Below, piece by piece: positions 1 to 55,810 of a stretch of DNA of 64,000 nt (positions within the stretch are counted from its first letter, which is position 1; every line of letters starts with the position of its first letter). This DNA is from Candidatus Latescibacterota bacterium (GTDB lineage: Bacteria; Latescibacterota; UBA2968; UBA8231). Made by a program: the position numbers and the translations under genes. Below the pieces are notes generated by a model that saw only the letters and a program-made list of their open reading frames with translations, had not been told where the DNA came from and ran no database searches. Where the stretch lies: NCBI GenBank assembly GCA_965261395.1, contig OZ253462.1, forward strand, positions 4,800,001-4,864,000, written 5' to 3'.

Positions 1-1082
1 TCAATATGGGCATCCCCCCGCAACGCCTTGATGAAGACATCGCGCAAATGCCCCCGTCCCATCCACAGCCCAGAGAGCACCAGTACGATCATGGCCCCCA
101 TGGCTTGGTGGGCCATGTGCGGCCCGACTAGGTTGGCGAAACGGCTCAGGTTTTCCTCACTGTAGATGCCCAGCACATTGAAGACACCTCGCTGCAGAGA
201 GGATAGCAAAAAGAAAAACCAGAACCCTAGGGCAATATCCCGGCTCAATAGGTAGGCAAAGCCGATCAGCGCTAGGTTCATATCTAGGCGGAGGTACGTA
301 GTGCCACGGAAGAGGTGAAAGCCGGTCGAGGTGGTGATGCGAGGCACGAATTCGTAGTAGCTATTCAGGGCATTTATAAGGCCGATAAGGAAGGGGATGG
401 CAAAACCCAGCCACATAGCCGTATTAGAAAAAAAAGGGGCCAGCAGCGTCCGTCTCCCATCACCCTGAATCATCTCTAGGGGAACCTGGGCCAAGGGATA
501 AAGCAGTTTTTCGCTTTCCATCCACTGTCGGCGCACGATCACCATGGCGCAGATGGATACCCAGTAGAAGGCAAGGATGAACAGGCACCAGTAGGTCAAG
601 GGCTCGACCCAAGCACCCCAAGGTAGTGGCCGCCCCTCGGGTAGCCCTTCGTAGAAATAGCGAATAGCGTCGGGGTCCTGGGGGACCATCCACTCGGGCA
701 CATGGGGGTGAATCAAGTCTGCCCAGTTGTTTTCAGGGGTGGCAAAGTAGTAGAGCCCCGTGGTGATGGGCAGAACGTATTCGGTGAAGCCAATCGTGGG
801 GATGGAAGTGGCTACCATCGCCATGATATAGACCACGGCCAATTCCCCTCTCGACAGGGCCAAGCCCCGGTGGAACAGGTGCAACAGTGGATTGAGGAAA
901 AGGACGAGGATGAAGAAGATAAAGAGGGCAACAGGAGTGCTGAAGTTGTGCGCTAGTACCGTCCCCTTGATGACCATATTGGAATAAGGTACGGCAACGC
1001 CGATGAAGATCGAGGCAACGCCGCCGATTAGCAGGGCTTTGAAGGTGACACCGCCGCCCGAGTTTTTCCCCTCAGTTGCCAT
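1..1082 (-). CDS. DUF6785/DUF6784-like multi-pass membrane protein (putative transporter), 3' end runs off the window
   Basis: Not in the ORF track. Reading the minus strand from ATG at 1082 gives MATEGKNSGGGVTFKALLIGGVASIFIGVAVPYSNMVIKGTVLAHNFSTPVALF, a close paralog of 16189..18219 (PYTNMIIKGTVMAHNFSTPAALF). Confidence 0.85.
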   Translation of the reverse strand, partial: MATEGKNSGGGVTFKALLIGGVASIFIGVAVPYSNMVIKGTVLAHNFSTPVALFIFFILVLFLNPLLHLFHRGLALSRGELAVVYIMAMVATSIPTIGFTEYVLPITTGLYYFATPENNWADLIHPHVPEWMVPQDPDAIRYFYEGLPEGRPLPWGAWVEPLTYWCLFILAFYWVSICAMVIVRRQWMESEKLLYPLAQVPLEMIQGDGRRTLLAPFFSNTAMWLGFAIPFLIGLINALNSYYEFVPRITTSTGFHLFRGTTYLRLDMNLALIGFAYLLSRDIALGFWFFFLLSSLQRGVFNVLGIYSEENLSRFANLVGPHMAHQAMGAMIVLVLSGLWMGRGHLRDVFIKALRGDAHI

Positions 1083-3010: not shown

Positions 3011-4897
3011 ATGGCTGACTTATCTCGTTTGTTGATCTGGAGCCTCTCCTTGTGGACTGGTTTCGCGGCCGGACCGGCCTCCGGGTTGGTTATCTACCGA
3101 TTGGGCGGCGAAGCATTGGCCCCGCCTCCAGAAGCAGGCCATGAAGGCGTGGAATTCATCCAACTAAACTGGACGGATTTCAATCCTCCCCTAGGCGGGG
3201 CCGCCATTGATTTGGATATAGACACCGCCGCTATCCGGCCTCTCAAACGCGATCCGAATTTCAATATAGCCCCCGGCATTGAAGCAAATGGAGGGGAGCA
3301 CGTCAGGCCCAATGTGAATGTGGAAGTATGGGATGGAGATGTCAGTACGGCTTGGGTGGCGGCCAGTTATCTGTGCGGCGCACTCAGCAGGTTTTTCTGC
3401 GTAGATGATTTTGGCCGACAGGGCACGGCTAATATCAACCTAGGCAATCCCTATCTTATTGACCGGGTGCGGATTATATCCGGCCTGACCGATCCGAGCA
3501 AAATAGTGCGGACGGTCCGCATTTACATCGCGCCGGAGTTGCCTTGGAAAAAAAGAACTCTCATTGATCATCCCCCGCCGTATTCACCCTGGGTCGTCGA
3601 GGTGCGGGACAATCGAGAGCAGATCATCGACATTCCCCTCCCCCCACAAGAGGGAACGACCTTTGTGCAGGTAGCCGCCAGCGAGCACGGCGAGGACTGG
3701 GAAGTAAACGAGATAGAAATCTACGCCAAAGGGCTAGTCAAAAAGGCCAGCTACATCTCGAACATTCTCGATTTTGGTCAGCCGATGGCCTGGGGCGACC
3801 TGCGCTGGTCCGGACGCCAAGACCCCAAAGCCCGCATCCTCATCCAATCCCGATCCGGACAAGACCAAGACCCCGACCTGTTCTGGCGCTTCACCGGACG
3901 AGGCGACGAAAAAATACCCGTCAGCCGTTCCGAATACGCCGACTTGGCCGTAGGCGAAAAAGCCGGCACCGGCTACGATCAAGCCAACTGGACCTTCTGG
4001 TCGGCCCCCTACGCCTTTGCCGACAGCAGTGGCACCCCCATCGTGTCGCTAAGCCCACGACGCTATCTCCAACTCAAAGTCGACTTTCTGCCTCAAGACG
4101 ACGACGGCGGACAGGTGGACTTTCTCGAAGTGCGCGCTTCCCCGCCGGTGGCCACGCAGTTGATCGGCGAGGTCTGGCCCGTCGAGGTCGCTGTGGGCCA
4201 GCCGCAGCAGTTTACCTATGTGGTGCGACCAACCTTGGGGGGTGACAGTGGAGGCTTTGACCGGTTGGAGGTGGCTACAGCGGCACGGCTGGGGACCGTA
4301 ACCCAAGTGCGCATGGGCGATGAGCCGGTCGACTATGCGGTGGAGGTGGCTGAACTGCACCGGGTGGTGGTGAGTTTCCCCCGGCTGACAGCTCAGGATT
4401 CGGGTGCTTTGGTGGAGGTAGTCTTCGAGGCGGAGGTATTGCGCTATGGCTCTACTTTTTCGGTGCGGGTGTGGGACAGTGCCCAGCCGTTGGAGGTGCC
4501 CCAGAGCGTGCAGGAGGGTGATGCCAGTCCAGCCTATGAGGGCAATCGGGTGTGGGTAGCCACCAAGGCGGAGCATCAGGGGGTGTTGCAGGTGGGTCGG
4601 CAGCCAGTGGTCTTGACGCCCAATGGGGATGGGCGCAACGACGCGGTGGGGTTGGGATATCGTTTGGTAGAGTTGACGGGTCGGTCCTGGGTGACGGTGG
4701 CGGTGTGGGATTTGTCGGGTCGCCGGGTTCGTCAGGTGTATGCGGGGTTGGATGGTGTGGGTGCGTATGAGCGGGTGTGGGATGGTCGGGACGAGTCGGG
4801 TCGGCTGGTGTCGCCGGGCCTTTACCTCTACCGCGTCTCCGTCGAAGCCGACCACCAAACCGTCTCGGCCGTAAAACCACTACAGGTCGCCTATTAA
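3011..4897 (+). CDS. Secreted protein with discoidin-like domain, Ig-like domains and C-terminal FlgD/CHU_C-like Ig tail (family A)
   Basis: 628 aa; signal peptide; LTPNGDGRND...VWDLSGRRVR...WDGRDESGRLVSPGLYLYRV; ends VAY. Confidence 0.85.
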   Translation: MADLSRLLIWSLSLWTGFAAGPASGLVIYRLGGEALAPPPEAGHEGVEFIQLNWTDFNPPLGGAAIDLDIDTAAIRPLKRDPNFNIAPGIEANGGEHVRPNVNVEVWDGDVSTAWVAASYLCGALSRFFCVDDFGRQGTANINLGNPYLIDRVRIISGLTDPSKIVRTVRIYIAPELPWKKRTLIDHPPPYSPWVVEVRDNREQIIDIPLPPQEGTTFVQVAASEHGEDWEVNEIEIYAKGLVKKASYISNILDFGQPMAWGDLRWSGRQDPKARILIQSRSGQDQDPDLFWRFTGRGDEKIPVSRSEYADLAVGEKAGTGYDQANWTFWSAPYAFADSSGTPIVSLSPRRYLQLKVDFLPQDDDGGQVDFLEVRASPPVATQLIGEVWPVEVAVGQPQQFTYVVRPTLGGDSGGFDRLEVATAARLGTVTQVRMGDEPVDYAVEVAELHRVVVSFPRLTAQDSGALVEVVFEAEVLRYGSTFSVRVWDSAQPLEVPQSVQEGDASPAYEGNRVWVATKAEHQGVLQVGRQPVVLTPNGDGRNDAVGLGYRLVELTGRSWVTVAVWDLSGRRVRQVYAGLDGVGAYERVWDGRDESGRLVSPGLYLYRVSVEADHQTVSAVKPLQVAY

Positions 4898-4938
4898 CAA
4901 GGCGTTTTGTACGAATCTAATTAGAGATTGGTTCTCCC

Positions 4939-7142
4939 ATGCAAGCGGACTTTAGTTCGAATTTACGCTCATATCTGATTATAGGGGTCTTGCTCTCCGT
5001 CTACGGGTCTGTGGGTACAGGAGCCACCAAGGAGTTGATCATTCTCGGCGGCGAGGAAGGCCGACCTTGGCAAGAAGGAGGAGGAGGATTAGATCCGGTG
5101 ATCATCTTAGGGCCCCAGGAGGTGACAAACGAAAACGTACCTGGGGGGGTTATCGACTTTTCTGCGCGGGAGGGATGGATTTTTCCCGAAAAGGCCGACC
5201 AAACTGACAACATCGCCTTACAACTGCGAGACCGAGGTGGATCTGTAACCGCGCCCACTGTTCTCACAGATCTAGCGGCAGACCTGTTAAAAATGATAGA
5301 CAATAATGCCAGCTCGGCCTTTGAAAGGAAAAGCGCTCCTGGTCGGAATGTCCGGGCGCTGGGCGTGGTCCTCCAGTTCGACCTAGGAGCGCGATTTGGT
5401 GTGAGTCGCATCCGCTTCTTCCCCAGGAACGCCGCTCCAGATTTTCTCGCTCCAGATTTTCCCTTTCAAGACGATTATATGAGGGCCTATGAGATTTTTC
5501 TCAACGACGGCACGCGAGAAACACTAGCCGCCGGCCTGCCGGTATTCACCAGCGTTCTGCTCGTACTGCAGAACGACCAACCGGTAGTAGATGTGCAGAT
5601 AGAGCCCCAGTACGTGCGCTATCTCCAGCTAAAATCCCAGACCACAGTGGGCTTTGAAATAGGAGAGTTCCAAGTCTTCGGAGAGGGTTTCGTGCCCACG
5701 GCGGAGTATCATTCGGATATATTCGATCTGGGAGAAAATTTGGCCCTTTGGGGAAATCTGCGCTGGGAGGAGGAGAGCCAAGGCGACCCGATCCGCTCCC
5801 AAGTGCCCATCAGCACTAGGAGCGGCTTTGATGATTCTCCAGTCGTGTTCAATCGCCTCCGCAGCGACCTCGACGGGGCCGAAGTGGCTTGGAAGACGGC
5901 CGATGAATTCGACGAAGGCAGCCAAGCGTGGGAAATCGTCAGTCAACTCGACGCGCCCGATTTCGATATAAAGCAGGCTCGGCAGTTCTACAAAGATTTG
6001 CCCCTCGATAGGAGGAATGAGATATCGCTGACCCAATCCGACTACAATAAACTGAGGTCGGGCAACAAGGGCTCGGTGCGGGACGACTTGGAAAACTGGA
6101 GCGCTTGGTCGCCGCCCTATGCGGCTACGGGTATAACTAGCGCCGATGAAGTATCCGCAGGGATGGGCGGAGTGCCCATCGTTTCGCCCGGTCCAGGGCG
6201 TTACTTTCAGTTCAAAGTGGATTATTTGAGTGAAGATCTCTTTTCGGCCAAAGGCATCGGTTCACTGTCCCTCGATTTTTCCAGGCCGGTACTGGCCGCA
6301 GAGATCGTGGGAGAGATCACCCCACGCCAAGCGGATCTGGGGCAAAAAACAGCTTTTTCCTTGGCACTCATTCCGATATGCGGCCCGAAATCGATCAGGG
6401 CTTCAGTTCCCTCGAAATCAGCACACCCGTAAAAGTGGACGCAGTAGATCGGATTGGCATGTCGCTACCGGATGGATCCCGCCTCGAACAAGATTTCTCG
6501 GATTCGGACCTGAGCGACCTGCCGGTGGAACGCGGGGATTTCCGCATTGATTTGGTCGAGGAAGATCGCTTCCAGATTAGTTTCCCCAAAGTAGAGAATA
6601 GTCGCATAGAAGTGGGACAGATGACCGTCTTGGAAGTGGTTTTCCAATGCGTAGTGCTGCGGACTGGAACCGCCTTTTCCCCCCTAGCCCTGTCCGAAAC
6701 CCCCGGCGAAGTTCCACAACGGGTAGTGGGAGGCAATGTCTTTTACTTGAGCCAAGAAAGTTCCAATGCCACTCTCATTCGCGACCCGGGAAATCTGGTG
6801 GTGCAAGTGGCGAAAAAAGGGGACTTGCTGATCAACGTCAACGCCGTACCAGCAGTCTTTACGCCCAATGGGGATCAGATCAACGATATTGCGCAGATAC
6901 ATTTTGATATCACCGATCTCATCAGCGGGGCCGGCGTAGCGCTGCGGATATACGACTTGTCTGGTGGCATGGTGCGGGAAGTCTATCGCGGAATCGACCA
7001 GAGTGGTCGCTTCACCAAGACGTGGGACGGTACCGATGGCCGAGGTAACACCGTGCCGCCTGGCCTCTACATTTTCAACATTGATTTGGACACCGACGGC
7101 GGCAAGGCCGAGGCGAGCGGCCTCATAGGCGTGGCCTATTGA
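4939..7142 (+). pseudogene. Family A FlgD-tail protein with a single -1 frameshift near 6373-6377 (real lesion or sequencing error)
   Basis: ORF 4939..6432 matches paralogs up to FSLALIP. ORF 6378..7142 continues the paralog alignment (GFSSLEISTP...FTPNGDQIND...GVAY). Adding one base gives 734 aa. Confidence 0.75.
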
Positions 7143-7201
7143 AGGCTGGACCGGGGTATGGATTGCTTCTGAGAAGCGCTTGCTAACGGGAGGGACACCT
7201 G

Positions 7202-9982
7202 ATGGTAGATACAGGTTACAGAGTATGGATAGCACTGTGGATAGTCGCGGCTTTGAGTACGACGGCTTTTCCCCAAGACTACAACAACCGCCTTGGGCAG
7301 CAAAGGGGTGGCAAGGTCACCTTTGAACCCTTGGGACCAGGGGTGTTTTTCGATGCCCTTGATCCCACAGTGAAACGGTGGTATGTCCCCCAAGAACTCT
7401 ACCACGATTACCGCTTCCAGACTTGGGAATACTCCAACTATGCCCGAGATCGCTATGAGCGCTACGTCAACACTACTCGGGAAGGCGAATATTTCTACGA
7501 CACGTTCGGCAATTTCGTCAACCGGGGATGGCTCATCTACGACTGGCGTCAGGAAGCCTTGACCCCTTTGGGCAGTTCCATCTACCAAGATTCGAGGTAT
7601 CAGGGTTGGTTCAACCAAGTGTTGATCGCCGCGGATTCAAAAGGCGGTGCTCTCTACTCCATAACTACAGGGGATCAGATACGCACCACGCTCACCCCCA
7701 TGACCTTTTCCAAGCCGGCATTCAACGGCATTCAGCTAGATTTCGCCGCCGATAAATACGCTGGCACGCTCCTCCTTTCAAGGATTAGTAGCCCAGTCAG
7801 GTCGTCCGTCTCCAGTGCCGATACCCGGACCAATGCCACCAATCTGATCGGCGGCCGGGCCCTAGCCCAGGTGGGCGATTTCGTCACCGTCGGCGCGACT
7901 TGGGTCAATGCCCACAACACCCGTACCACGCTGGGCTCCAGCAACCCCACCAAGGGCACACTGGGCGACGGGCAGGCCAGAGTGCCTATCAACGCTATCG
8001 CCCTCGTGCTCAGCGATGATTCTCCCGAAGACGGGGAGGGAGGAACCGCGCTCTTTTCCCACGATTTAGTCGTGGTGCGCGAAGATTTCCAAAACGGAAT
8101 CCGCGAAACGCTCAGCCTTGCCGACCTAACCAACGATCCAACGCGCTGGCCAGTCATAGAAGGCGGTTTTCGGGAAGAGGGTTTCTTGGCCGCCAACGGC
8201 ATTCAGCGGATCATCATCAACTACGATTTTAACGATCCGGCCTATATCGGTCCCGACCCGACTGAGATCGTAAAAATGACCTTTGATTTGGTACTGGCCA
8301 ACGACTACAAAGTCGAGGTGTGGTCCGACCGCCAGACCGGGCAGGAAACCCCGCCGGAAGCGCCTCTGACTAGAGCGATCCTCGACGAGAGGAATCCGGT
8401 CTTACTCGAGATCGCCCGTGCGCTCGACAATACCAAGGACGGCTCCAACCGGAGAAGGCTGGTTTTCGACTACGGCCTACCCACTGCCACGCAGATTTAT
8501 GGCTTTACCATTGAGGCGCAGGACATCCTAGGTTTCAACTTCTACGGCGAGTACGACATCAACCATAAATTCAGGCAGTATCCCAACCTAGCCTTGTTTA
8601 CCGACGACCGTTCCTTTGAGGACGCTTCGACCCGAGCGGATGCTTGGATGATGAACCTCTCCTTTCAGGATTATCCTTGGTTCTTCTTCGGCGAGGCCTT
8701 TTCCATGGACCACGACTACTCCACTAGTTCCTTCCTACTCAACCAAAATGGCGATATCAACTACGACCAGCCTTCCCAGTTTTTCTACGAGTTCGTCGAA
8801 GACAACGACGATCAGGATCGCACTCCCGATTGGCAGCGAGGCGGTCAGCCGGGTCCCGATTTTTCTATTTTCCCCGGCTGGGACGAAAACAACGACTTCG
8901 TAAGCGATTTCAACCAGAATGACAATCGGACAATCAGCAATCGCATCCCCGATTACGACGAGCCCTTTCTCAGGTATGAGGTCGACCGGCCGGAATTTCT
9001 CTTTGGCATTGACTTGAACAACAACGACTGGATTGACCGTTTCGAGAACGACGACGAGCCAGATTTTCCCTACAAGAGGGACCACAGAGGCTACAATGCC
9101 TATTCCGGCGCTCATGTCATCCCAGGTGTCAGGGTGAGCGTGGGACAGACCCGCGAGGAACTGCTCTCCTCTGAGCGAGAGAATACGACTACCTACGGGC
9201 TGGCGACCGTGGATGGGAATTGGGCCGGTCTAGGGCGCTTGCGGGTGTTCGATATGGTAAAACGAGCCAAAGACACCATCCCCGATGACCGCCGTGCGCC
9301 CCAGGGATTTCTCTTGGCGGGTCTGCCCGCCAAGGTCGCCGATATTCTGCCCGCCCAGGATACCTGGGTGAACTCCCTGTTTATCGGATTCGACTATACG
9401 CGGATTCCGCAACTGAACATCCGCAATAAGATCAAATACGATCTGTACGTTCAGCGCAGCGATGATCTCAGGGCTTTGGACAGAAGTCCACTTCACGATA
9501 GGTCGTCCTTCCTCGGGCTTATCAACAAAGTGGATTATACCTACCGCCTTGAAGGTCTGAGCATTCAGCCGCGCTTCAAAAGCCAGTACTTGAAGCGCAC
9601 ACCATTCTTGCGCCGCGAGGCAGATATCGAGGAATGGGATGGATTCTTGTCGGTGATCCTCAAATTCCCCGTGCTGAGGCATTCGATGATTGAAATGGGC
9701 ACGGAGTTCAGACAGCTAAGAGAATTGAAGGCAGACGAAGATGCCTTGGTCCAGGAGAGCGTAGTGGGACCGACGGGAGATCTAAACGAGACTAACCTAG
9801 CCGTTCAGTGGTCAACCAAGACGGATTACCTAGGGTACGTATTACTGCTACAGACAGGGTTCCGACTGTCTAGGAAATCCTTAGAGACCATCGAGATTAT
9901 GGATCTGGAGGTCGACAAAAAGTCCACCATCGAGACTGGCACCACCACCTTCATAACCATCTACGCCGGGGTGGAACAGTAA
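7202..9982 (+). CDS. Uncharacterised ~900-aa secreted protein, probable outer-membrane protein with acidic Ca-binding-like loops (family B)
   Basis: 926 aa; signal peptide; shares PQELY, TTLTPMTF, DDSP, YGLPTA, DNDDQD, NNDFxSDFNQN and PDYxEPFLRY with 10072..12849 and 56930..59599. Confidence 0.85.
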   Translation: MVDTGYRVWIALWIVAALSTTAFPQDYNNRLGQQRGGKVTFEPLGPGVFFDALDPTVKRWYVPQELYHDYRFQTWEYSNYARDRYERYVNTTREGEYFYDTFGNFVNRGWLIYDWRQEALTPLGSSIYQDSRYQGWFNQVLIAADSKGGALYSITTGDQIRTTLTPMTFSKPAFNGIQLDFAADKYAGTLLLSRISSPVRSSVSSADTRTNATNLIGGRALAQVGDFVTVGATWVNAHNTRTTLGSSNPTKGTLGDGQARVPINAIALVLSDDSPEDGEGGTALFSHDLVVVREDFQNGIRETLSLADLTNDPTRWPVIEGGFREEGFLAANGIQRIIINYDFNDPAYIGPDPTEIVKMTFDLVLANDYKVEVWSDRQTGQETPPEAPLTRAILDERNPVLLEIARALDNTKDGSNRRRLVFDYGLPTATQIYGFTIEAQDILGFNFYGEYDINHKFRQYPNLALFTDDRSFEDASTRADAWMMNLSFQDYPWFFFGEAFSMDHDYSTSSFLLNQNGDINYDQPSQFFYEFVEDNDDQDRTPDWQRGGQPGPDFSIFPGWDENNDFVSDFNQNDNRTISNRIPDYDEPFLRYEVDRPEFLFGIDLNNNDWIDRFENDDEPDFPYKRDHRGYNAYSGAHVIPGVRVSVGQTREELLSSERENTTTYGLATVDGNWAGLGRLRVFDMVKRAKDTIPDDRRAPQGFLLAGLPAKVADILPAQDTWVNSLFIGFDYTRIPQLNIRNKIKYDLYVQRSDDLRALDRSPLHDRSSFLGLINKVDYTYRLEGLSIQPRFKSQYLKRTPFLRREADIEEWDGFLSVILKFPVLRHSMIEMGTEFRQLRELKADEDALVQESVVGPTGDLNETNLAVQWSTKTDYLGYVLLLQTGFRLSRKSLETIEIMDLEVDKKSTIETGTTTFITIYAGVEQ

Positions 9983-10071
9983 ATGGCAGGCGCTGATTAC
10001 ACCTGTGGAGCAAGCGAGAATTTTGCTTTGAGCACTCCGTCCTTTTGCGCACAGTCCAATAGGAGGGATCC

Positions 10072-12849
10072 ATGCTAAAAAGGTACGGCTCGTGGTATGT
10101 TGTGGGGATACTCTGCGTACTAGCTTTATCGTCCGCTACTGGCTGGGCTGCGCAAAACTATGGGGCTCTCTTAGGGCACCAAGCCAATGACGGCACAGTG
10201 GTGTATCGCTCTGAGGGTCCCAAGACCCTGCTGGGCAACGTGGAGCCATCGGTGCGGAAACGGTATCTGCCCCAAGAGCTGTATCAGGAGTACCAGTGGC
10301 AGACTTGGCAGTACACTAACTACGCTGGCAATCCCTATCAGAGATATGTGGCGCAAAGCCTCTGGGGCGATTATTTCTACGATGTGTACGGAAATTTCCT
10401 GACCAGAGGATGGTTGGTCTACGACTGGACCGAGGATCACCCGCGAATCTCCGAGGGCAGTCGTCTGCTGAAAAGAGGAGCATATTCCGGTTTCTTTAGC
10501 TCATTGATTGTAGCCTCCGACCAGAAAGGTCAATATTCCTTTTCCATTTCCGTTGGCGACGAACTGGTCACGACCCTGACGCCAATGACCTTTCGCAAGT
10601 CTGTGTACAACGGTGCCCAAGTCGATCTCATGTCGGACGCGGTCGAGCTGACTGGTATCTTTTCCCGCATCAGCGCACCGGGCTTCATCACCGATCCGAA
10701 TCCGGCCTCTTTCAACAACTACACCAACCTGATAGGGGGCCGGACTAGGGTCCGACTAGGTGATGCCATTACCTTGGGAGGGGTCTTCGTCAATTCCCAC
10801 AACGGCCGGGGGACCGTGCAGAGCTTTGAGGGCAATCCCTTCAAAGGGGAATTAACCTCGCTGCAGTTACAAAACCAGATCAGTACTATTGTCATCCGGC
10901 TGAGCGACGACTCACCGGCCGATGATATCGGGGGGAGCGTCCTACTAGCGGATAATGTAGAAATAGCGACGACTATCGGAGACAGAGACACCGTGCTAGT
11001 CGGCAATGAGATCGGCTTCACACCCCATAGGCAGGGAGGCACCATCATAGAAGGCGTGCGCACGGCCAACGGTACGGAACAGATCACCTTGCGTTACGAC
11101 TTAAACGACCTAGCCGTGATTCTCGACGACAAGGATGCCATCAACAACATCCGGGATCTCCGCTTCAGACTGGTCCTAGTCAACGACTATCGGATCGAGA
11201 TCACTTCCGATCAGCAGACCAACTTTGAAGGACAACCGGTCTTTCTGCTGATGGCCCAGGCCGAAGGCAATATTCAGGACGGATCGAATAAGCGCGAAGT
11301 GGTCTTCAACTACGGCTTGCCCACTGCTAACCAGCTATTGGGCTTCACGATCGAGGCCCGAGATTTCCTAGGATTTGACTTTTACACCGAGTTCGATGTG
11401 AACCACCAGTACAGAAAATACCCCAACCGCCGGGTGCAGACGCACAGGGCTTACTCGGGACTCGTCGGCGACGAAAACGCCAAAGCCTGGATGATGAATC
11501 TGTCCAAATCGGTCTTCTCTTGGTCCCTCTTTGTCGAGGGCTTCTACATGGATGAGGCCTACAATACCAGTCCCTTCATATCGGATGGTAGCGGCCGCGT
11601 AGATTACGAAGACGGAACCAGGAGCATCTACGACTTCGTCGACGACAACGACGATCAGGACAAGAAACCCGACCAAAAGCGGCGCTACCAAGATCCTAGG
11701 ACTGGCGAGGAATTCCGCGCCGATAGAACCGGAAGATCCGCCGAAGGTTTCGCCGACGAGGCGGTGTTCCCCGGCTGGGATCAGAACAACGATTTCATCT
11801 CCGACTTCAACCAAAACAGCAACATCTTCAGTGATAACCGCTTCCCGGACTACGAGGAACCCTTCCTGCGCTATGGTTCAGACCGACCTGAATACCTCTT
11901 CGGTATCGATCTCAACAACAACGGCTGGGTCGATCAGTTCGAAAACGACAACCTGCCCGATTATCCTTACAAGAGGGATCGCAAGGGCTACAACCTGTAC
12001 CTGCGCAATCAGGTAACTCCGCACTTGCAACTCACCGCCGGGCAGGCCCGCGAACAGCTCCTTTCAGACGACCGCCAAAATCTGACCACCTACGCCCTAG
12101 TGAGCTTTGAACAGGAGTACGCCCGGATCGGACGGGTGAGCATCTTCGACATGCTCAAAAAGGCGGCAGACGATATTCAGGACGACCTCTTTCAATGGGT
12201 ACAAGTTCCAGGTCTGCCCGGATCGCACCAAGCAATAGACGACCCCCTCTTCGCCCAAGATACCTATATCAATACCTTTTGGCTGGGTTTGGACCGTCGG
12301 ACAAATATCGGGGTCAATTTTTCCAATAAATTCAAGTACGAGACCGTGAGACAGCGGGAGAAAGGTAACAATCTAGGTTTTAAGGACGATACGCGTTTCC
12401 TCGGGATCATCAATAAGGCCGACTATCTGTACCAGTACAAAACTCTGACGATGCGACCGAAGATCAAGAGCGAATTTCTCAAGGACAATACTCCCTATTC
12501 TATGGGAGGTGTGCGCCCTGTGCGAGATCAATGGACTGGTTTGTTCTTCTTGACCCTCAAATTCCCCGTTCTGCGGCGAACGACCATAGAGACGGGTATA
12601 GAACAACTCTTTTTCAGGGATTCGGTGGTTGATGAGGACGATTTAGCAGCGGGTGAATTCACCGAGGATTTCAACAGCACGGTCTTGGCTATGCAACTTT
12701 CGAACAGGGGGGAGTACCTAGGCTATGTGCTCACGGCCCAACTCGGCTACAGTATCCGTAGAATCAGTCAAGAGCGAGTCGAAAGAGATGACCGGTCACA
12801 GATAGATAGTACCGTGTTTATGACGATGTACGCCAGCCTGAAAGATTGA
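10072..12849 (+). CDS. Family B ~900-aa secreted/probable outer-membrane protein
   Basis: 925 aa; RBS AGGAGG upstream; signal peptide; same motif set as 7202..9982. Confidence 0.85.
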   Translation: MLKRYGSWYVVGILCVLALSSATGWAAQNYGALLGHQANDGTVVYRSEGPKTLLGNVEPSVRKRYLPQELYQEYQWQTWQYTNYAGNPYQRYVAQSLWGDYFYDVYGNFLTRGWLVYDWTEDHPRISEGSRLLKRGAYSGFFSSLIVASDQKGQYSFSISVGDELVTTLTPMTFRKSVYNGAQVDLMSDAVELTGIFSRISAPGFITDPNPASFNNYTNLIGGRTRVRLGDAITLGGVFVNSHNGRGTVQSFEGNPFKGELTSLQLQNQISTIVIRLSDDSPADDIGGSVLLADNVEIATTIGDRDTVLVGNEIGFTPHRQGGTIIEGVRTANGTEQITLRYDLNDLAVILDDKDAINNIRDLRFRLVLVNDYRIEITSDQQTNFEGQPVFLLMAQAEGNIQDGSNKREVVFNYGLPTANQLLGFTIEARDFLGFDFYTEFDVNHQYRKYPNRRVQTHRAYSGLVGDENAKAWMMNLSKSVFSWSLFVEGFYMDEAYNTSPFISDGSGRVDYEDGTRSIYDFVDDNDDQDKKPDQKRRYQDPRTGEEFRADRTGRSAEGFADEAVFPGWDQNNDFISDFNQNSNIFSDNRFPDYEEPFLRYGSDRPEYLFGIDLNNNGWVDQFENDNLPDYPYKRDRKGYNLYLRNQVTPHLQLTAGQAREQLLSDDRQNLTTYALVSFEQEYARIGRVSIFDMLKKAADDIQDDLFQWVQVPGLPGSHQAIDDPLFAQDTYINTFWLGLDRRTNIGVNFSNKFKYETVRQREKGNNLGFKDDTRFLGIINKADYLYQYKTLTMRPKIKSEFLKDNTPYSMGGVRPVRDQWTGLFFLTLKFPVLRRTTIETGIEQLFFRDSVVDEDDLAAGEFTEDFNSTVLAMQLSNRGEYLGYVLTAQLGYSIRRISQERVERDDRSQIDSTVFMTMYASLKD

Positions 12850-12900: not shown

Positions 12901-14190
12901 ATGCGAAGTACCGTCTCTGCACCAGATCTGGGATTGGTGGAGTCTCTCTTTGCAGAAATTGAAAAAATTCCGTGTATCAACTCCCACTCCCACATGGGGC
13001 CGGAAGCCGAGCGCCTAGCGCAGCAGATAGACGCTCTCGCCTTTTTCAACCACGCCTATCCGGCTGCCGACTTGGTGGTGGCCGGCCTCTCTCCCGAGAA
13101 TAAAGAGGCCCTTTTCGACGCTCGACGCCCGCTGGACCAGCGGTGGTGTCTGTTCGAGCCGTACTGGAACCGGATCCGCCTGACCGGGTACTCCCAGTGC
13201 ATCTTGACCGGCTGCCGCGATCTGCTCGGCTTCGACGATCTGACAGCCGCCACAGTTGGACCACTCTCTGAGGCCATCCAAGCACATAGCAAACCGGGCT
13301 TCTACAAAACGGTGCTGCAGCAGCGAGCCAATCTCGCAAGGTCAGTGGTCAATATGGAAGATCTGATTGAGGTGGACCGGACCTTATTCCTGCCCCTGCC
13401 CCGCCTCAACCGCTTCAGCATGCTCCGCACGGCTGAGCAAATCCACGCGATAGAGCGCGACTACGATGTGTCCATCGGCGATCTGCGCCAGCACGTCGCA
13501 GTCATTCGACAGGTGTGCCAAGACTGGAAGGAAGCCCGGGTGGCCGGGGTCAAGATGTCGCAATCCTACCACCGCCGCATGGACTTCAAAGAACGGGACG
13601 CCGGCCAAGCCGCTGTTATTTTCGACCGTCTGTTGCAAGACGACTACGCTGGGCTTGATTCGGCAGAAGGTGCACTGCTGGAGGACTACCTAGTCTTCGA
13701 ATGCTGCCAGGCCGCTGCGGAAGCTGACCTGACCGTCCAGTTCCACCTAGGCATGCGGGCGGGCAACAATGGGGGTATGGAAGGGTGCAGTCCAGTGCCG
13801 CTCATCCCCTTGCTGCAGGCCTTCCCCCAAGTCCGCTTTGACCTCTCCCACGCCGGCTTCCCCTATCTGCGCGAGGGCGCCGTGTTGGGCAAGACCTTTG
13901 CCAATGTCTATCTGAACATGTCTTGGATCCACATCATCTCCCCCTTCGGGTCTCGGCTAGATCTGCGAGAGTGGCTCCAGATGGTGCCCTACAACAAAAT
14001 TATCGCCTTTGGGGATGACTTACAGCAGGTCGAGACGGTCTACGGGCACTTGCAGATGGCACGCCGGAATTTCGCCTATGCGCTGGGAGCTCTGCTGGAA
14101 GAGGGCTTGCTGTCCGAGTCGATGGCTCTCGACGTGGCCCAAGCGACCTTTCGCGACAATCCGGCGATGGTCTACGGAGTCAATGCCTGA
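12901..14190 (+). CDS. Amidohydrolase family (TIM-barrel metallohydrolase)
   Basis: N-terminal HSH, then QFHLG, LSHAG and FGDD metal-ligand motifs; 429 aa. Confidence 0.85.
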   Translation: MRSTVSAPDLGLVESLFAEIEKIPCINSHSHMGPEAERLAQQIDALAFFNHAYPAADLVVAGLSPENKEALFDARRPLDQRWCLFEPYWNRIRLTGYSQCILTGCRDLLGFDDLTAATVGPLSEAIQAHSKPGFYKTVLQQRANLARSVVNMEDLIEVDRTLFLPLPRLNRFSMLRTAEQIHAIERDYDVSIGDLRQHVAVIRQVCQDWKEARVAGVKMSQSYHRRMDFKERDAGQAAVIFDRLLQDDYAGLDSAEGALLEDYLVFECCQAAAEADLTVQFHLGMRAGNNGGMEGCSPVPLIPLLQAFPQVRFDLSHAGFPYLREGAVLGKTFANVYLNMSWIHIISPFGSRLDLREWLQMVPYNKIIAFGDDLQQVETVYGHLQMARRNFAYALGALLEEGLLSESMALDVAQATFRDNPAMVYGVNA

Positions 14191-16146
14191 TTACCAGTCA
14201 TGCACATTGTGGCCCTGCAAGGGAAACCAGATTACATCCACTACTCCCGAGAGCACGACGCCGATTACATAGCCCACGCCCAAGCCGTAAAAAAAGGGCT
14301 TGCCCTTGCGGTACGCTCTGACTCCGCCGTAGCGCAGCAGTAGCAATTTAGCTATCCAGACCAAAAACAGGCTGAACCAATAGATGGATGTGCCCGAGGT
14401 ATGCTGAAAGGCCAGCCCAATGGGATGGAGCGAGAACCAGTGAAAGCGGGCCCGTAACAGCGCTAGGCCTCCCGACTGCAACAAGCCCCAGCCCCAGACG
14501 CCCCACTTCCCCGGATCCCCAACTCTGGGATTTTGCAGCAGATGCACTGTTTCGTCTAAGAGGCCGGTCGCACCCATCAGAAAAACGCCCCCCCCTTTGT
14601 CATAGGCCATCTCGAGGCTGGCCCATACCGCGGTTAGAAAACCCACTGCAAAGGCGACTAGCACCGTAGCGGTCACCAGCCACGGCTGATCCCGTAGCGA
14701 GAAAATGCGCAGATGGTGTGGGATGGCGGGCCAAGCCGGCAGACGGATATTGCCGAAAAAAGCATGACCGGTGAACATCTTGAAGGCGACTAGGTCCTGC
14801 GGTGACAGGCGGGCCGAGCCCACCAAATCGACGATGAAAGAACTCCCCTTGGCATTGGGCCAACTGGGCATGAGGTAGGGAAAGCCCGTGGCCGCAATGA
14901 GTTTGATGGTGACGAAAAAGGTCGATACCATCAGGACAAAGGCACCGGTGGCCAGCGGTAAACTCGCCCCCAGACTGCAAGCCCAAGCGATGACATAGAG
15001 GGCCGACAGGATCAGACCGACCAAGGCCAAGCGATAGATCCCGACTTGGCGCCGGTCCCCCTCCCCGGTGCGTACCTGTCGCCACACTTCTCGCAAGTGC
15101 CGGCGGGCTAAGTACACAGACCAGCAGGCCACAAAGACGATGGCCCCCAAGCTTTCCAGCGAGAGGATCGCCTGCGGTGCCAAAGGCTGCCCCTCTGCAC
15201 CTATGACTAGTCCCACCCGATCCATCAGCCCTATTTTGACCGTAGCCAGCAGAGCGAAGACGACTAGGCTGCCCAGGATATCCAGCGGACATAGATAGGT
15301 CAAAGCCATAACCAAAGGCAGAACGCGGATGGTCAGACCCGGGAAAGGTTGGGGCAATTCGAGGTGGAAGCGTTTGGTATAGAGTTCAAACAGCGGCAAA
15401 CCCGGCGTGAAGTATGCGCCGATATTGTAGAGTAGGGGCAATAAGACAACCCCGCAGCCGATCCAGAACAGACCCGAGCAGAACAGGTCGGGCACCCGTC
15501 GCGGCCCGTCGAAGCCCCGCGTCAGATCAAGGGGCATCTGCGCCAGCGGGAAAGAGAGTTTTTCGGCTTCCATCCACTGGCGCTGGAATAGTACCACCAA
15601 GCAAAAGCCGAATACCACCATGCCCAGCGAGGCCCCCATCCACTGGATAATTGCCCCGACCCAGCCATCCCACGGCACCGCCGCCCCCTGAGGTAGCCCC
15701 ATCCAGAAGGTATCTAGCACCCGAGGCGAGGAGTCGGGAAAGACGCCCCAGGGCAAATAGGGAAAGAGCAGGTCCGACCACTGGTTTTCAGGTGTGGCCA
15801 TGTAGAAGGGCGCTCCGAGAATGGCGATCCAGTAGTCGCTCCAGCCCCACTGCGGCAAAGCACCCACCACCCAGAGCATGGTGAAAATAGTCAGCAGTTC
15901 GCCCCGGTCTAGGGCCAGCCGGGGCCACATGCGCCCGCAGGCGGCGTTGAGGAAAAGCCACAGCACGAAGGGCATAAAGACCACCATGGGGAACTGCGAG
16001 CGGACATAGCTCCCCGACCCCGATGCTTGTCCGACCTCGAGGATGAGGTAGTAGAATACAGCGACAATGGTCAGCCCCCCTAGAATCAGGGCACGCAAGG
16101 TAATCCGAGGGGGCTTGGAGTCGTCTAATGAACGGATGTTACGCAC
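14191..16146 (-). CDS. DUF6785/DUF6784-like multi-pass membrane protein
   Basis: 651 aa, many TM segments; ATPENQW, QWMEAEKLSFPL, WFSLHPIG and RYGGVRAYRKGKPFFYGL motifs. Confidence 0.85.
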   Translation of the reverse strand: MRNIRSLDDSKPPRITLRALILGGLTIVAVFYYLILEVGQASGSGSYVRSQFPMVVFMPFVLWLFLNAACGRMWPRLALDRGELLTIFTMLWVVGALPQWGWSDYWIAILGAPFYMATPENQWSDLLFPYLPWGVFPDSSPRVLDTFWMGLPQGAAVPWDGWVGAIIQWMGASLGMVVFGFCLVVLFQRQWMEAEKLSFPLAQMPLDLTRGFDGPRRVPDLFCSGLFWIGCGVVLLPLLYNIGAYFTPGLPLFELYTKRFHLELPQPFPGLTIRVLPLVMALTYLCPLDILGSLVVFALLATVKIGLMDRVGLVIGAEGQPLAPQAILSLESLGAIVFVACWSVYLARRHLREVWRQVRTGEGDRRQVGIYRLALVGLILSALYVIAWACSLGASLPLATGAFVLMVSTFFVTIKLIAATGFPYLMPSWPNAKGSSFIVDLVGSARLSPQDLVAFKMFTGHAFFGNIRLPAWPAIPHHLRIFSLRDQPWLVTATVLVAFAVGFLTAVWASLEMAYDKGGGVFLMGATGLLDETVHLLQNPRVGDPGKWGVWGWGLLQSGGLALLRARFHWFSLHPIGLAFQHTSGTSIYWFSLFLVWIAKLLLLRYGGVRAYRKGKPFFYGLGVGYVIGVVLSGVVDVIWFPLQGHNVHDW

Positions 16147-16188
16147 CTTCCCATTTTCTGTTAGTCTCGCGCCTTCGAAGCATCCTGC

Positions 16189-18219
16189 TCAAAAATACCC
16201 CAACACATTCCCGGTCTTTCCGGTGCAGGCGTCAATGACCAGCCACAAACCGGCCACTACAACTTGGCCCAAAATTAAACCGAGAAAAAACGGCCGCGTC
16301 TTCACGTACCCCGCGGAGCCGCCGTACTTGAGTATGGCGATCTTCAGCACCCAAGCGGTGAAGATACTGAACCACACCCAGTTCATAATGTTGAACGTAC
16401 CTGTGGCAAAGCCCAACGGATGGATCGGCCACCACACAAAGTGGTAGCGGATATAAGTCAACAGGCCCATGAGTACCGCGCCCAAAGCCGTGAAGCCCCA
16501 ACCAGATATGCTAGCCGGGACCGGATCGACGAATTTAGGAGCGATAAAATTGAATGCATTGCGCGGCACTCCCACGAACCAGAACTCGTGGAGGTTGATC
16601 CCACCGTACTTATAGGACAGGGTCATAACGGACCACACCGAGCTGAGCAAAGTGACGGCTATAGCCAAGAAAACCGCCCACAGCAGGCCTCTTTTACTGC
16701 CGCGAATCTCCTCGGCCAGCTTCAGCGCATTGGCAAAACAGGGCATGAAGAAGATGCGTATATTGGCGCTCCACACATAGGTGAAGGCCAGCCCGGTCAG
16801 ACCGGAGGCACCCAACGCGCTGGTGCCCACTCCAGAAATCACAAAATCGGCCGGGGTCAAGGGCGTGCGAATCACGGAAATTCCGCCTTCCGCTACCGCT
16901 CTGGTGATGGCGATAAAGATCGCGGTCATTCCGAATAGAAAGACCGGGACAACCCACAGCGGAACCCCGGACTGCCACAACCAAGTCCCCATCACCCCCA
17001 GCCCCACGAGCAGGCCCCAGACCGCCGTGCGATAGGAGATAATTTCGTCGCTATCGTCGATGGACGGGTCGTGGTTGAATACCTTGCGATAGACGGCTTG
17101 CAGATGCCGGCGCGCCATCCACACGCTGGACAAGACTAGCACGATCATGGCACCCATGGCTTGGTGAGCCAGATAGGGGCCAACCGAATTGGCGAACCGG
17201 CTCAAGGTCTCCGTGCTTTGTATACCCAAGACATTGAAGACTCCCCGTTGCACAGTCGACAGCAGGAAGAAGAACCAGAATCCCAGAGCTACATCGCGGC
17301 TGAGCAGATAGGCGAAACCGATCAGGCCTAGGTTCAGGTCGAGACGCAGGTAGGTGCTGCCTCTGAACAGACGCATCTCGGAATCGGTGTCGATGTGCGG
17401 CAGAAAAGGAAAATAGCCGCTGAGCGCGTTCGCCGTACCTATGAGGAAAGGCACGGCGAACCCGACCCACATGGCCCGGTTCCTAAAGTAAGGTTTGACG
17501 AGCGAGCGCCGCTCGTTAGGGCCGCCCCCCTCGCGCTCTTCATCCTGAATCATCTCTAACGGGACTTGGACTAAGGGATAGGGCAGCTTTTCGTATTCTG
17601 CCCATTGTTTGCGCAGAATGGTCATCATACATATAGACACCCAGTAGAATGAGAAGATGAACAGGCACCAGTAGAAGAGCGGCTCGATCCAAGCATCCCA
17701 AGGCAGAGCCATGCCTTGGGGCAAGCCCTCGTAAAAATAAGTGATGGCCTCCATATCTTGCGGGGCGATCCACCTAGGCACATGTGGGTGGATCAATTCA
17801 TGCCACTTATTTTCGGGGGTGGCGTAGTAGTAAAGCCCTGCGATGACAGGCAGCAGATTTTCGGTGAAACCAATGGTGGGGATGGAGGTGGCTAGCATCG
17901 CCATGATGTAAACCACCGCCAACTCGGAACGGCTCAGGGCAAATCTAGGGCTTGGCAGGGCCAAGGCTGTGTTTATTAGGAAAGCGAATACGAAGAATAC
18001 AAAAAGGGCGGCCGGTGTGCTGAAATTGTGGGCCATGACCGTGCCCTTGATGATCATATTGGTATAAGGCACAGCCGCGCCGATGAACAGCGACAAAAAG
18101 GCACCAATTGACACGGCCCGAAAGGTAATACCTGATGTCTGTTCCTCGGGCTGGGCCGCGCCGCGCCGGGTCTTTAGGTGGCGCTGGAAGATTGGAGGGA
18201 TCTCTTTTTTTATATTCAA
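16189..18219 (-). CDS. DUF6785/DUF6784-like multi-pass membrane protein
   Basis: 676 aa; ATPENKW, QWAEYEKLPYPL, WWPIHPLG and KYGGSAGYVKTRPFFLGL motifs. Start uncertain (TTG). Confidence 0.85.
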   Translation of the reverse strand: MNIKKEIPPIFQRHLKTRRGAAQPEEQTSGITFRAVSIGAFLSLFIGAAVPYTNMIIKGTVMAHNFSTPAALFVFFVFAFLINTALALPSPRFALSRSELAVVYIMAMLATSIPTIGFTENLLPVIAGLYYYATPENKWHELIHPHVPRWIAPQDMEAITYFYEGLPQGMALPWDAWIEPLFYWCLFIFSFYWVSICMMTILRKQWAEYEKLPYPLVQVPLEMIQDEEREGGGPNERRSLVKPYFRNRAMWVGFAVPFLIGTANALSGYFPFLPHIDTDSEMRLFRGSTYLRLDLNLGLIGFAYLLSRDVALGFWFFFLLSTVQRGVFNVLGIQSTETLSRFANSVGPYLAHQAMGAMIVLVLSSVWMARRHLQAVYRKVFNHDPSIDDSDEIISYRTAVWGLLVGLGVMGTWLWQSGVPLWVVPVFLFGMTAIFIAITRAVAEGGISVIRTPLTPADFVISGVGTSALGASGLTGLAFTYVWSANIRIFFMPCFANALKLAEEIRGSKRGLLWAVFLAIAVTLLSSVWSVMTLSYKYGGINLHEFWFVGVPRNAFNFIAPKFVDPVPASISGWGFTALGAVLMGLLTYIRYHFVWWPIHPLGFATGTFNIMNWVWFSIFTAWVLKIAILKYGGSAGYVKTRPFFLGLILGQVVVAGLWLVIDACTGKTGNVLGYF

Positions 18220-49443: not shown

Positions 49444-52143
49444 TCAATACGCCACCCCAACTAGGCGAGCAGCCGAGTTGTCATCCCTCGCGTCGTCATC
49501 CACCTTAATACGGGCAAGGTAAAGGCCCGGGGATACTAAATTCCCCCCTTCATCTCGTCCGTCCCAGACGAGGCGATACAGCCCGTTGGCCAGATCGCGC
49601 CGCTCAGATAGACGCCTCACTTTCCTGCCCGCCAAGTCGTAGAATTCCACCCACACTTGCCGGGCTACATTGACTTTGAGCACGGCAAACGAAAAGACAG
49701 CCGTGTCGTTGATGCCGTCGCCATTCGGGGTAAAAATGGCGGGATCCACCTCGATTATCCCGATCTGCCCGCCGTGGGCGGTCGTCAATACTGTCAGCCC
49801 CTCACCGGCGGCCAATTCGTCTCCTACCGGGTCCGCCGGATCCACCCTCTGCCAGTTGTCCGCTTGAGTCGAGCGCCCAACTTCGGCTGCAAAAGTGGCA
49901 CCGCTCAGGAAAACACGCGACGAAAAAGAGAGTCGCACAATGTCCGCACTGCCTCGCCGCAGTACCCTTGGCAAGCCGAGTTGGAGAGTGTCTCCTGCCA
50001 CTTTGGTCAATTCCAGTTTCTCCCCCTCTCCATTCTCAAAACGGCCTTTTGCCACTTCGGCAAATATTTCCTCGTTTCCGGCTGCAAATTCGCTTTCGTC
50101 TCCTAAGCTCACTTGGCGCAGTTCAATATTCGCTCGCGAAGGAGCTATGAGACGGATGCGGTCGAATCCCGGGTCTCGAGCGGTGAAGGAGGGGCGTATG
50201 AAGAGATCGAAATCGGTGAGTTCGCCGATGGGGACATTTCGCTTGGGCTCTATTTCCCCGGCGATGCGCTCTGCCAGCGGCGCTGTGAAGTGGACTTGGA
50301 TAGACTGCAAGCTGGCGGCCACGGCCGCGTCTCCACTGAGCAGTCTCGTCTGGATCATCATATAGCGCCGGGGGCTGGGGGAACGTATGACTTCGCCCGG
50401 CTCGATATAGACTTGGCTCCAGTTGCTCCAGCCCGGTCCCGGCAGGAACTCGGTAATGATATCCCCCCTGTAGAAGGACGGCTGATCCTCGTATTCTTCT
50501 TTGTTGGCTACTTCCGTGCCGTCTTTTTTGAAATAGCGGTTTACTTCGCGCAGATCGTTTCCCGTGCGAGTGCGGATTTCCACCGCTGTGCCGGAGGGGG
50601 TGTTCGCTTCCCATTCGATGGTAGTCAGCGTCTTGGAACTCTCCAGATCGATGAGGTCAGAAGTCATCTCGAGAAGCGGCAGATGCCCGTTGGCGAAGAC
50701 TTGGATTTCGGTCACCGTGCTCAGTATCCGATGCCCTTCATGGGCCCTAGTGCGGCGGGCAATATCTAGGTTGCGGAATTCTATAAAGCGTATCGGGCGC
50801 GGCGCAAAGCGATCCTCAAACAACCGCGTATTCTGGTTTAGCTGCCGCGTCTCACCACTCAATTCCTCCCAGATTAAACTGCCATCCGGCGCCAGCGAGC
50901 CGTCCGAACCACGCAATAGATAACCAATCAGGTTTCTTCCTCCGACGCGGGTAATGATGCGCACCGCATGGACCAGGAAGTAGGTGCCCAGATCTACGTT
51001 CAACAGACCCCACTCGGCGGTCTCCCCGGTGGGAAAGTAAACCATGCCCTGCCACTCGGTGCGCACGTTGCCGTCAACGGCAAGTTCGGGCGAAGAATTG
51101 GGATTGACATCGTGCAAATTACCGCCGCGCTCTACGATCCCCAAGGCAATGTTCTCGCCTATAGTCCATACCTCCACCTCGGCGAGTTGAGGCCGTTCGC
51201 GGCGGTAATAGCGCACCCCGCCCTGCTGCTCAAGTGGCAACTGGTCGTAGCGCTCGGCCGTTACTAGACGCTCTTCACCGGCAATTTTCCAGACGTATTC
51301 CACAGCGCCTTGGTTCTCTGCTGTCAACGCCTGATAATCCTCGGCCGAGAGCTGTTGCGCCCGCTCGCCATTGGTGGCCGTGGCCGCGACGCGCAGGTAC
51401 TGCATAATGCGGCCGCTCCACTCCTCTGTATGGGTGCCCAGCGGTGCGAGATCAAACTCAAAGACCCGCTGGTCGCGATTGGGCTGAGTGGTACTGCCAA
51501 CCAAGGTATAGTCCAAGGCACCGCTGCGGTCAGCCGTGCCAAAGGGGTTTTGCCCCCCTGCCGAATGCACCCTGAATTGCAGGAACGGGTCCCCTTCTTC
51601 GGCAAAGCGCACGACGACCTTGGTGGCCGACACCAGACGGCCAAGATCAATCTCCAACACCCAGTCCCGCAGGGGATCGGCCGGGTCCGGCTCCCAAGCT
51701 GTAGCCGGATTTGCGTCAATGGCCCGCTCCGCTAGCTGCGGATTTGAACCGGCCCTTTTGATCCCTCCGTGCGCCAGCAGAGTGTTGTTTTCATCTTGGA
51801 ACGAATTGGCGTACTGATCTCGCAAGCTGCCATCAATGGGATAGCTAAAGTCGGCCACATTCAATATGGCGTTGTGCGGTACTTGTACAAATCTGGACTG
51901 CATCGAGCCAGACGGCGTTATGGTCACCATATCTCCCGGAAAATCCCAGGCCTGCCAGTGCGCCTGAGTCCGCACCTCTACCCGATCCGCGCCCAAACTG
52001 TAACCCCTCGACTGGGCCCATACCCCATTTAGAGCCATAGAAAAAAAAAGGGCTACAAAACAGAGCGCCGGGGACAAAAGACCCGATCTCCTCGCGGCCG
52101 TCTCCGAAATCATCGAGTACTGCGTAGGTAAGCGGTGTTCCAT
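49444..52143 (-). CDS. Family A FlgD-tail secreted protein, long form with two discoidin-like modules
   Basis: 899 aa; two (I/V)DLG...EVEV/EIQV modules; FTPNGDGIND...WDGRDEGGNLVSPGLY; ends VAY. Confidence 0.85.
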   Translation of the reverse strand: MEHRLPTQYSMISETAARRSGLLSPALCFVALFFSMALNGVWAQSRGYSLGADRVEVRTQAHWQAWDFPGDMVTITPSGSMQSRFVQVPHNAILNVADFSYPIDGSLRDQYANSFQDENNTLLAHGGIKRAGSNPQLAERAIDANPATAWEPDPADPLRDWVLEIDLGRLVSATKVVVRFAEEGDPFLQFRVHSAGGQNPFGTADRSGALDYTLVGSTTQPNRDQRVFEFDLAPLGTHTEEWSGRIMQYLRVAATATNGERAQQLSAEDYQALTAENQGAVEYVWKIAGEERLVTAERYDQLPLEQQGGVRYYRRERPQLAEVEVWTIGENIALGIVERGGNLHDVNPNSSPELAVDGNVRTEWQGMVYFPTGETAEWGLLNVDLGTYFLVHAVRIITRVGGRNLIGYLLRGSDGSLAPDGSLIWEELSGETRQLNQNTRLFEDRFAPRPIRFIEFRNLDIARRTRAHEGHRILSTVTEIQVFANGHLPLLEMTSDLIDLESSKTLTTIEWEANTPSGTAVEIRTRTGNDLREVNRYFKKDGTEVANKEEYEDQPSFYRGDIITEFLPGPGWSNWSQVYIEPGEVIRSPSPRRYMMIQTRLLSGDAAVAASLQSIQVHFTAPLAERIAGEIEPKRNVPIGELTDFDLFIRPSFTARDPGFDRIRLIAPSRANIELRQVSLGDESEFAAGNEEIFAEVAKGRFENGEGEKLELTKVAGDTLQLGLPRVLRRGSADIVRLSFSSRVFLSGATFAAEVGRSTQADNWQRVDPADPVGDELAAGEGLTVLTTAHGGQIGIIEVDPAIFTPNGDGINDTAVFSFAVLKVNVARQVWVEFYDLAGRKVRRLSERRDLANGLYRLVWDGRDEGGNLVSPGLYLARIKVDDDARDDNSAARLVGVAY

Positions 52144-52177
52144 AACCTATTGTCCCGGATAAAACGTACCTACGTAT

Positions 52178-53914: not shown

Positions 53915-53922
53915 GTCTTCTA

Positions 53923-55800: not shown

Positions 55801-55810
55801 CTAAGAGAAC

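Follow-up and report, generated by a model that had tools for sequence, protein, structure and literature searches.

An undescribed, heavily amplified module of discoidin-type secreted proteins and large predicted outer-membrane barrels in a Latescibacterota bacterium, possibly a motor-coupled importer

Four genes of two families, here named A and B, lie on the + strand at 3011-12849 of the window (the whole stretch of 64,000 nucleotides analysed), in the order A, A, B, B, as the preliminary description had reported; the intergenic gaps are 41, 59 and 89 bases. A1 (3011..4897, +, 628 aa) carries a signal peptide, a beta-sandwich scaffold into which a CBM32/F5-8 type C (discoidin) fold is inserted (3245..3742, +), an Ig-like domain, and a type-B-like type IX secretion system (T9SS) tail (C-terminal domain at 4577..4894, +) with a TPNGDGxND motif and Tyr as the last residue. 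A2 (4939..7142, +), a single gene coding for about 734 aa, appears in the assembly as two ORFs (4939-6432 and 6378-7142). B1 (7202..9982, +, 926 aa) and B2 (10072..12849, +, 925 aa) belong to two clades, called first-B and second-B below, and are 42% identical from end to end, in agreement with the earlier statement that B is conserved along its whole length. Scans for promoters and terminators stayed at chance level. Contigs of RNA runs from three studies spanned most of the cluster, contigs being unable to show transcription, and one run spanning it was labelled sponge metagenome.

The split of A2 could be traced to position 6372, where the assembly has one base fewer: an extra base was present in the contigs of three of the four runs compared, the fourth having no coverage there, and in the best-matching run it was the sole difference over 3.3 kb. 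Since A2 was also a single open frame in 7/7 relatives, the split is a one-base assembly error, and a real pseudogene broken at 6372 was ruled out.

An Amidohydrolase_2 family enzyme (12901..14190, +, E 4e-8), a possible cargo-processing gene, begins 51 bases after B2, and next to it two multi-pass inner-membrane proteins with Pfam matches to DUF6785/DUF6784 are encoded on the other strand (14191..18219, -). A third DUF6785 gene (3..1082, -) runs past the window start, with a fourth just outside the window. Divergently from A1 runs the gene of a 465-aa lipoprotein (1211-2608, -), which contains a CxxCH motif and weakly matches copper monooxygenase.

The same two families recur in another order in a second cassette (49444..61645, -), as had been noted before. 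In the direction of transcription it consists of A (59627-61645, -, 672 aa), B3 (56930-59614, -, 894 aa), a TWG-tail CBM9-like protein (55891-56763, -, 290 aa), A (53923-55800, -, 625 aa), a SurA-like PPIase (52178-53914, -, 578 aa) and A (49444-52143, -, 899 aa). The CBM9-like protein ends in a short motif of the TAVE..SWG.IK type, which 48 other ORFs of the genome share, some of them CBM9-like and others secreted proteins without relation to these (49 matches to the pattern in all, a few of them spurious); it had no family match and is possibly a third sorting signal.

The model of A1 (pLDDT 91) contained the scaffold with the inserted domain, the Ig-like domain and the tail. For the discoidin part the best structure match had Z 14.7 and rmsd 2.5 over 134 residues, and the top matches were mostly CBM32 modules and F-type lectins, together with some non-sugar-binding DOC domains. 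Family A can be modelled as a secreted protein with a CBM32/discoidin fold of sugar-binding type, a shared fold not being proof of sugar binding; this is in line with the secreted, ligand-binding role proposed earlier. The discoidin region had further been described as variable on a conserved scaffold. It is indeed present, but pairwise identity among A proteins was 28% in this part against 27-31% in the scaffold and 37% in the tail, and what varies is length, mostly between 550 and 1100 aa. Signal peptides of A were read by eye, a lipobox-like pattern was found in 4/149 A, and no SusD match was obtained in the 25 A ORFs scanned besides the split N-half.

For the tail described as FlgD, T9SS type-B-like C-terminal domain is the better name: FlgD_ig matched A1 (E 3e-7), CHU_C (PF13585) matching the tail of A1 (E 7e-5) and all five tail-bearing A ORFs of the window, three of them above cut-off. 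CHU_C was also above cut-off in 11/20 further A, TIGR04131 matched A tails below its cut-off only, and the A1 tail had a fold match to the C-terminal part of PorU (Z 11.4, rmsd 2.7 over 98 residues). The final Tyr was present in 145/149 A and the type-B motif in 87/149, whereas among the 85 other FlgD-tailed proteins of the genome the type-B motif was found in none and a type-A-like motif in 62. A flagellar role of the tail was ruled out, full FlgD models matching far below cut-off.

SprA, seven PorV-family proteins and PorU were revealed above cut-off in the genome by profile searches, and SprA was present in 149/151 of the genomes compared. Because the tail is CHU_C/type-B-like and these components exist in the genome, A would most simply be T9SS type-B-like cargo, judging from sequence. 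The known pairs of type B cargo and barrel (SprB-SprF, PG1035-PorP), as far as they are treated in the parts consulted of PMC12618676 and PMC9143113, are similar in the CHU_C and weak TIGR04131 matches of the tail, in the cargo gene directly upstream of the barrel gene, and in SprA, PorV and PorU of the host. In contrast, the A tail is longer, FlgD-like and Tyr-ended, and no GldM match was found in this genome, the GldM model matching no control genome either. Given the missing GldM match, a TPR lipoprotein at 36843-39467 (-) is a lead on T9SS energisation; it resembles PorW/SprE of the T9SS (NF052312, E 1e-37, below cut-off) and has a C-terminal TonB_C above cut-off.

For B1, AlphaFold2 with 150 sequences gave a model of pLDDT 88 and pTM 0.87. 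In it, long strands that run antiparallel and are hydrophobic on alternating faces are connected by short turns at one end and by long loops at the opposite end, which points to a large outer-membrane beta-barrel of about 22-24 strands, a count read from secondary structure alone; the N-terminal 70 residues were of low confidence. Two large inserts stand on the long-loop side. One is a beta-rich domain by predicted secondary structure (7925..8476, +), which, from the distribution of short and long connections between strands, would be extracellular. The other is an Asp/Asn-rich stretch (8708..9082, +, 30% D+N), where the residues best conserved across family B are found, even among distant B; it probably binds calcium.

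Neither Pfam nor NCBIfam gave a match on B1, B2, B3 or four distant B, and the best E value in a PDB sequence search was 0.04. In Foldseek the top rows were SlpA and MtrB (E 2e-8 to 4e-7, TM about 0.2), and TM was at most 0.26. In VIA the best match had Z 12.7 and rmsd 9.9; the 50 matches listed were all membrane barrels with none outstanding, and the TonB-dependent transporters among the matches listed, RagA (Z 9.2) and BT1763 (Z 9.1), stood below generic porins. The earlier view of B as a membrane beta-barrel without family match, for which AlphaFold and Foldseek had been named as the check, was thus upheld. TonB-dependent transporters have the plug model PF07715, and the C-terminal domain of TonB is TonB_C (PF03544). 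Neither the plug domain nor the receptor barrel family matched B, the 22 plug matches of the genome lying elsewhere, and no SusD family match occurred on the A and B proteins of the window, as had been claimed. A charged lumen was not indicated at the barrel-interior positions (KR 17.0 vs DE 16.5). Homologues of B were labelled as Latescibacterota or Gemmatimonadota MAG proteins, all hypothetical. The nearest named cluster by language-model features was that of the DUF6029 (PF19494) barrels (0.89, 161/256 shared), which is a lead only, B having no Pfam match. On these models B would be a large outer-membrane barrel family without a close known relative, and the absent family match does not exclude a family.

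In the genome of 6.55 Mb, profile searches with a clear score gap counted 46 B genes and 149 A ORFs, a few of which stem from genes split in two; the two families make up 7.1% of the DNA. A same-strand A lay within 10 kb of 46/46 B, against a mean of 6.8 and a maximum of 15 in 500 trials of random placement, which bears out the predicted linkage of A and B within this genome. The gene directly upstream of B was A in 31/46 cases and another B in 9/46. B occurred in 32 clusters, all with A, and 26 further clusters held A only; the four genes at 3011-12849 are one of about 32 module copies in the genome. Within 10 kb of B were also 25/33 SurA-like PPIases, 26/36 CBM9-like TWG-tail proteins, 12/15 members of a small lipoprotein family and 48/92 FG-GAP/ASPIC and TPR proteins (7.4% expected), as well as 17/57 DUF6785 proteins against 4.2 expected; type-A-tailed proteins were not enriched there (2/86). 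The A/B module is a genuine envelope system, heavily amplified and so far undescribed.

A FastTree phylogeny of the 46 own and 29 distant B (one method, no bootstrap) separated the first and the second B of eight A-B-B cassettes, 3011-12849 included, into two clades with support of 93 and 99 and mirrored branching. From the separate clades and the mirrored branching, B1 and B2 are an old fixed duo, B2 being the fixed partner of B1 in the eight cassettes, and this suggests, on phylogeny, that they may work as a paired barrel.

Outside the window, a founder-type locus with motor genes was found in this genome (G000:5300170-5318460), and the same order exists in distant families: A, a PorV-like gene, one to three B, a TPR protein (1040-1180 aa), ExbB, ExbD, ExbD, a lipoprotein and often a membrane-anchored DUF4159 protein. 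The barrel right after A has 286-351 aa, with PorV and PorP/SprF matches below cut-off. A founder-type query found 63 loci, biased to close kin and some on short contigs, with TPR in 53, lipoprotein in 51, A in 46, ExbB in 29, DUF4159 in 28, ExbD in 26 and the PorV/PorP-like barrel directly after A in 26. L180, labelled Zhuqueibacterota, and its near twin L182 have a single-copy founder locus with unrelated genes between the PorV-like gene and B. At L114:16533-17729, a member of the small lipoprotein family continues into an AgmX/PglI (TonB_C-like) tail that scores above cut-off.

The DUF4159 proteins consist of a single N-terminal membrane helix, a Lys/Arg/Pro-rich linker and the DUF4159 head. 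TonB/TolA transducers bear a Ser-x3-His motif in the membrane helix; a His was found in the helix of 35/46 DUF4159 proteins and Ser-x3-His in 14/46, and helix and linker follow the TonB/TolA layout, so that these proteins may be called TonB-shaped. Of the four ExbB loci in this genome, three include DUF4159 and the lipoprotein, and one a canonical TonB; 3/10 DUF4159 and 1/4 ExbB lie within 10 kb of B. Two of the motor cassettes (G000:5503220-5514816 and 1389596-1402020) have ExbB, ExbD, DUF4159 and lipoprotein beside A, without B, one of them with TPR and PorV-like genes. Modelled in complex with the DUF4159 head of its neighbour, a truncated distant B (residues 36-764) scored 0.00 in two runs, a result that weighs neither for nor against contact.

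Across relatives, B was present in 91/151 genomes and membrane-anchored DUF4159 in 93/151, in the same families plus two weak matches. DUF4159 accompanied B in 91/91 genomes and both were absent from families f2-f4 (0/56 genomes), a co-occurrence that amounts to few independent losses. All 66 genomes of this bacterium's own family had B. The A scaffold model matched 81/151 genomes and missed three families with A visible in loci, the search being less sensitive for divergent A, though A tails still score. Most genome records with B were labelled Latescibacterota. A wide spread past the phylum was not seen, B occurring in 1/61 genomes of the phylum of the Zhuqueibacterota record; isolated B records under the names Zipacnadia, Planctomycetota and Cytophagia may come from bins with a wrong label. 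TonB-dependent plugs numbered 3-30 per genome with B and 15-35 without, similar counts by which B as a replacement for TonB-dependent transporters was ruled out.

B was also numerous without A. In genome G003, the ten B loci read contained 15 B, ten DUF4159 genes in eight loci and A in one, B and DUF4159 genes being duplicated jointly as units; in family f10 a lone B without A was seen in 6/9 loci. Genome G052 has 37 full-length B and two A scaffold matches, with A in 1/20 loci read. Of the 46 genes flanking B there, 43 were scanned with no genome-wide null, three founder-locus genes being left out: 19 degradative enzymes, in which genomes of this kind are generally rich, two DUF6785, four regulators, four mobile, two TPR, two type-A-tailed, five other and five without family. 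The degradative neighbours included five PhyH dioxygenases, a rhamnosidase, a sulfatase, an oligogalacturonate lyase and peptidases. The scatter of B among catabolic genes resembles that of TonB-dependent transporters. About a dozen B of this genome are apparently split and several stand beside transposases, which suggests ongoing turnover or assembly errors.

The best explanation, to which we give an even chance (roughly 0.5), is that the A/B module works as an importer coupled to a motor, A being its binding partner at the surface; it would resemble SusCD in function and not in descent. B barrels would import organic nutrients, driven by the ExbB/ExbD proton motor via the TonB-shaped DUF4159 protein, with the long TPR protein and the small lipoprotein assisting the coupling; motor genes of the founder locus would serve expanded cassettes such as 3011-12849 in trans. 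A would exit via the T9SS, through SprA and a PorV/PorP-like shuttle, and stay on the surface next to B, where its discoidin domains would bind ligands, much as SusD/E/F do on behalf of SusC. B1 and B2 would probably act as a fixed pair, and DUF6785 proteins could carry cargo across the inner membrane; they gave no useful PDB match and atlas leads to peptide/OPT transporters, all below 0.9. We infer transport by B and all partner contacts from the barrel fold, the founder locus with its motor, the shared distribution of B and DUF4159, the catabolic neighbours and the CBM32-type fold of A. Against this stand the lack of charge bias inside the barrel and, for coupling in this cassette, the position of the expanded B1/B2 clade away from motor genes.

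The comparison with SusC/SusD, made already in the preliminary description, would fit as an analogy. Large outer-membrane barrels in many paralogues, with proposed binding partners at the surface, genes of catabolism nearby and barrels in tandem pairs, are common to the module and the TonB-dependent transporters; so is an ExbB/ExbD motor with a single-helix transducer, for which the module has candidate genes in the founder locus. Unlike SusC and TonB-dependent transporters, B has no plug or receptor family match and no close fold match; unlike SusD, A is a T9SS-tailed discoidin protein instead of a lipoprotein; and the founder-locus transducer ends in DUF4159 instead of TonB_C.

B could instead be the shuttle or anchor for the type-B-like tail of A, a large stand-in for PorP/SprF that receives A at SprA and keeps it at the cell surface, which we consider rather unlikely. 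The Introduction of PMC12618676 states that a type B cargo gene precedes a sprF-like gene, and the order seen here, with A directly upstream of 31/46 B and another B upstream of 9, fits that rule. The Tyr end of A and its type-B motif, the latter missing from the other FlgD-tailed proteins, also speak for a shuttle role of B. On the same side, TIGR03519 was above cut-off in 0/151 genomes, with no positive control matched either, and the PorP search in this genome and in control genomes likewise gave no match. However, any A was found in one of 20 loci in G052 and one of ten in G003, and B is abundant without A there and in family f10. Founder loci place a PorV/PorP-like barrel, the expected shuttle, after A. 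PorP/SprF barrels (TIGR03519/PF11751) have about 300 aa and, according to the part of PMC9143113 consulted, PorP-like proteins are 14-stranded, whereas B has about 900 aa, about 22-24 strands and no such match. Similarity between neighbouring A and B was weakest at the tail (Mantel 0.16) and strongest in the middle Ig domain (0.40), a weak argument because shared descent inflates all values. Because B is abundant without A in relatives and founder A has its own PorV/PorP-like barrel, B is probably not the shuttle of A. The earlier idea of a small dedicated export system for A likewise did not hold, since A has a T9SS-type tail, SprA, PorV and PorU are present, and B is numerous without A in relatives.

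Another reading, which we hold unlikely, sees in the module a counterpart of Agl-Glt/Nfs of Myxococcus, a platform at the surface that is powered by the motor and serves adhesion, gliding or polymer export. The motor would move or load B, and A would be adhesins gripping host or particle glycans. The Agl-Glt core (aglRQS, gltC/D/E/G), as given in the part of PMC3169522 consulted, has one MotA/ExbB and two ExbD/TolR class proteins, a TonB-like transducer, TPR proteins and outer-membrane barrels, with a surface partner and repeated duplication, and the founder parts are of the same classes. The lipoprotein with the AgmX/PglI tail, the adhesins among Flavobacterium type B cargo and the sponge label of one run also favour a platform. 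Yet no homology to Agl-Glt was seen for B, A or the DUF4159 protein, no Glt model matched B, the GltC match of the founder TPR protein was weak (E 0.0014), the partner is T9SS-exported in our reading, and dozens of stand-alone B among catabolic genes are more in keeping with many substrates than with a single motility machine. Improbable is a passive role, with B as a porin or as a structural protein of the surface stabilised by calcium, A as a coat and the motor genes serving other clients: the SlpA and MtrB rows in Foldseek and the two motor cassettes with DUF4159 without B would fit, but the former are generic barrel likeness, and B and DUF4159 are co-duplicated in G003 and share one distribution.

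More tentatively than import itself, the module may represent an importer class of its own in the outer membrane, powered by protons and without relation to TonB-dependent transporters, in which B is gated by ExbB/ExbD via a DUF4159-headed transducer and fed by T9SS-displayed lectins, with partly fixed barrel pairs and independent expansion to dozens in several lineages. If motor-coupled import with A as surface partner is the function, energised outer-membrane transport would gain a new barrel class, DUF4159 and DUF6785 a role, and T9SS-type cargo a use outside the Bacteroidota, to which the Introduction of PMC12618676 assigns such cargo exclusively. Since the families take up 7% of the genome and B is universal in the family, A/B is probably a main way in which these uncultured marine and sponge-associated bacteria handle their surroundings. 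The literature searched, mostly main texts of open-access papers, linked neither Latescibacterota to T9SS or FlgD nor DUF4159 to ExbD, did not mention DUF6785 or DUF6784, and held nothing on the A/B module; PMC4454575, in the part consulted, describes porins and TonB import in Latescibacteria and leaves the module out of its account.

Elsewhere in the window, an island of lower GC (18403-28124, 49-54%) was observed with a SNF2 helicase and a sacsin-domain gene, the latter seemingly broken by a transposase-like ORF of 481 aa (21225-22670, labelled transposase by eye). It is possibly a defence island.
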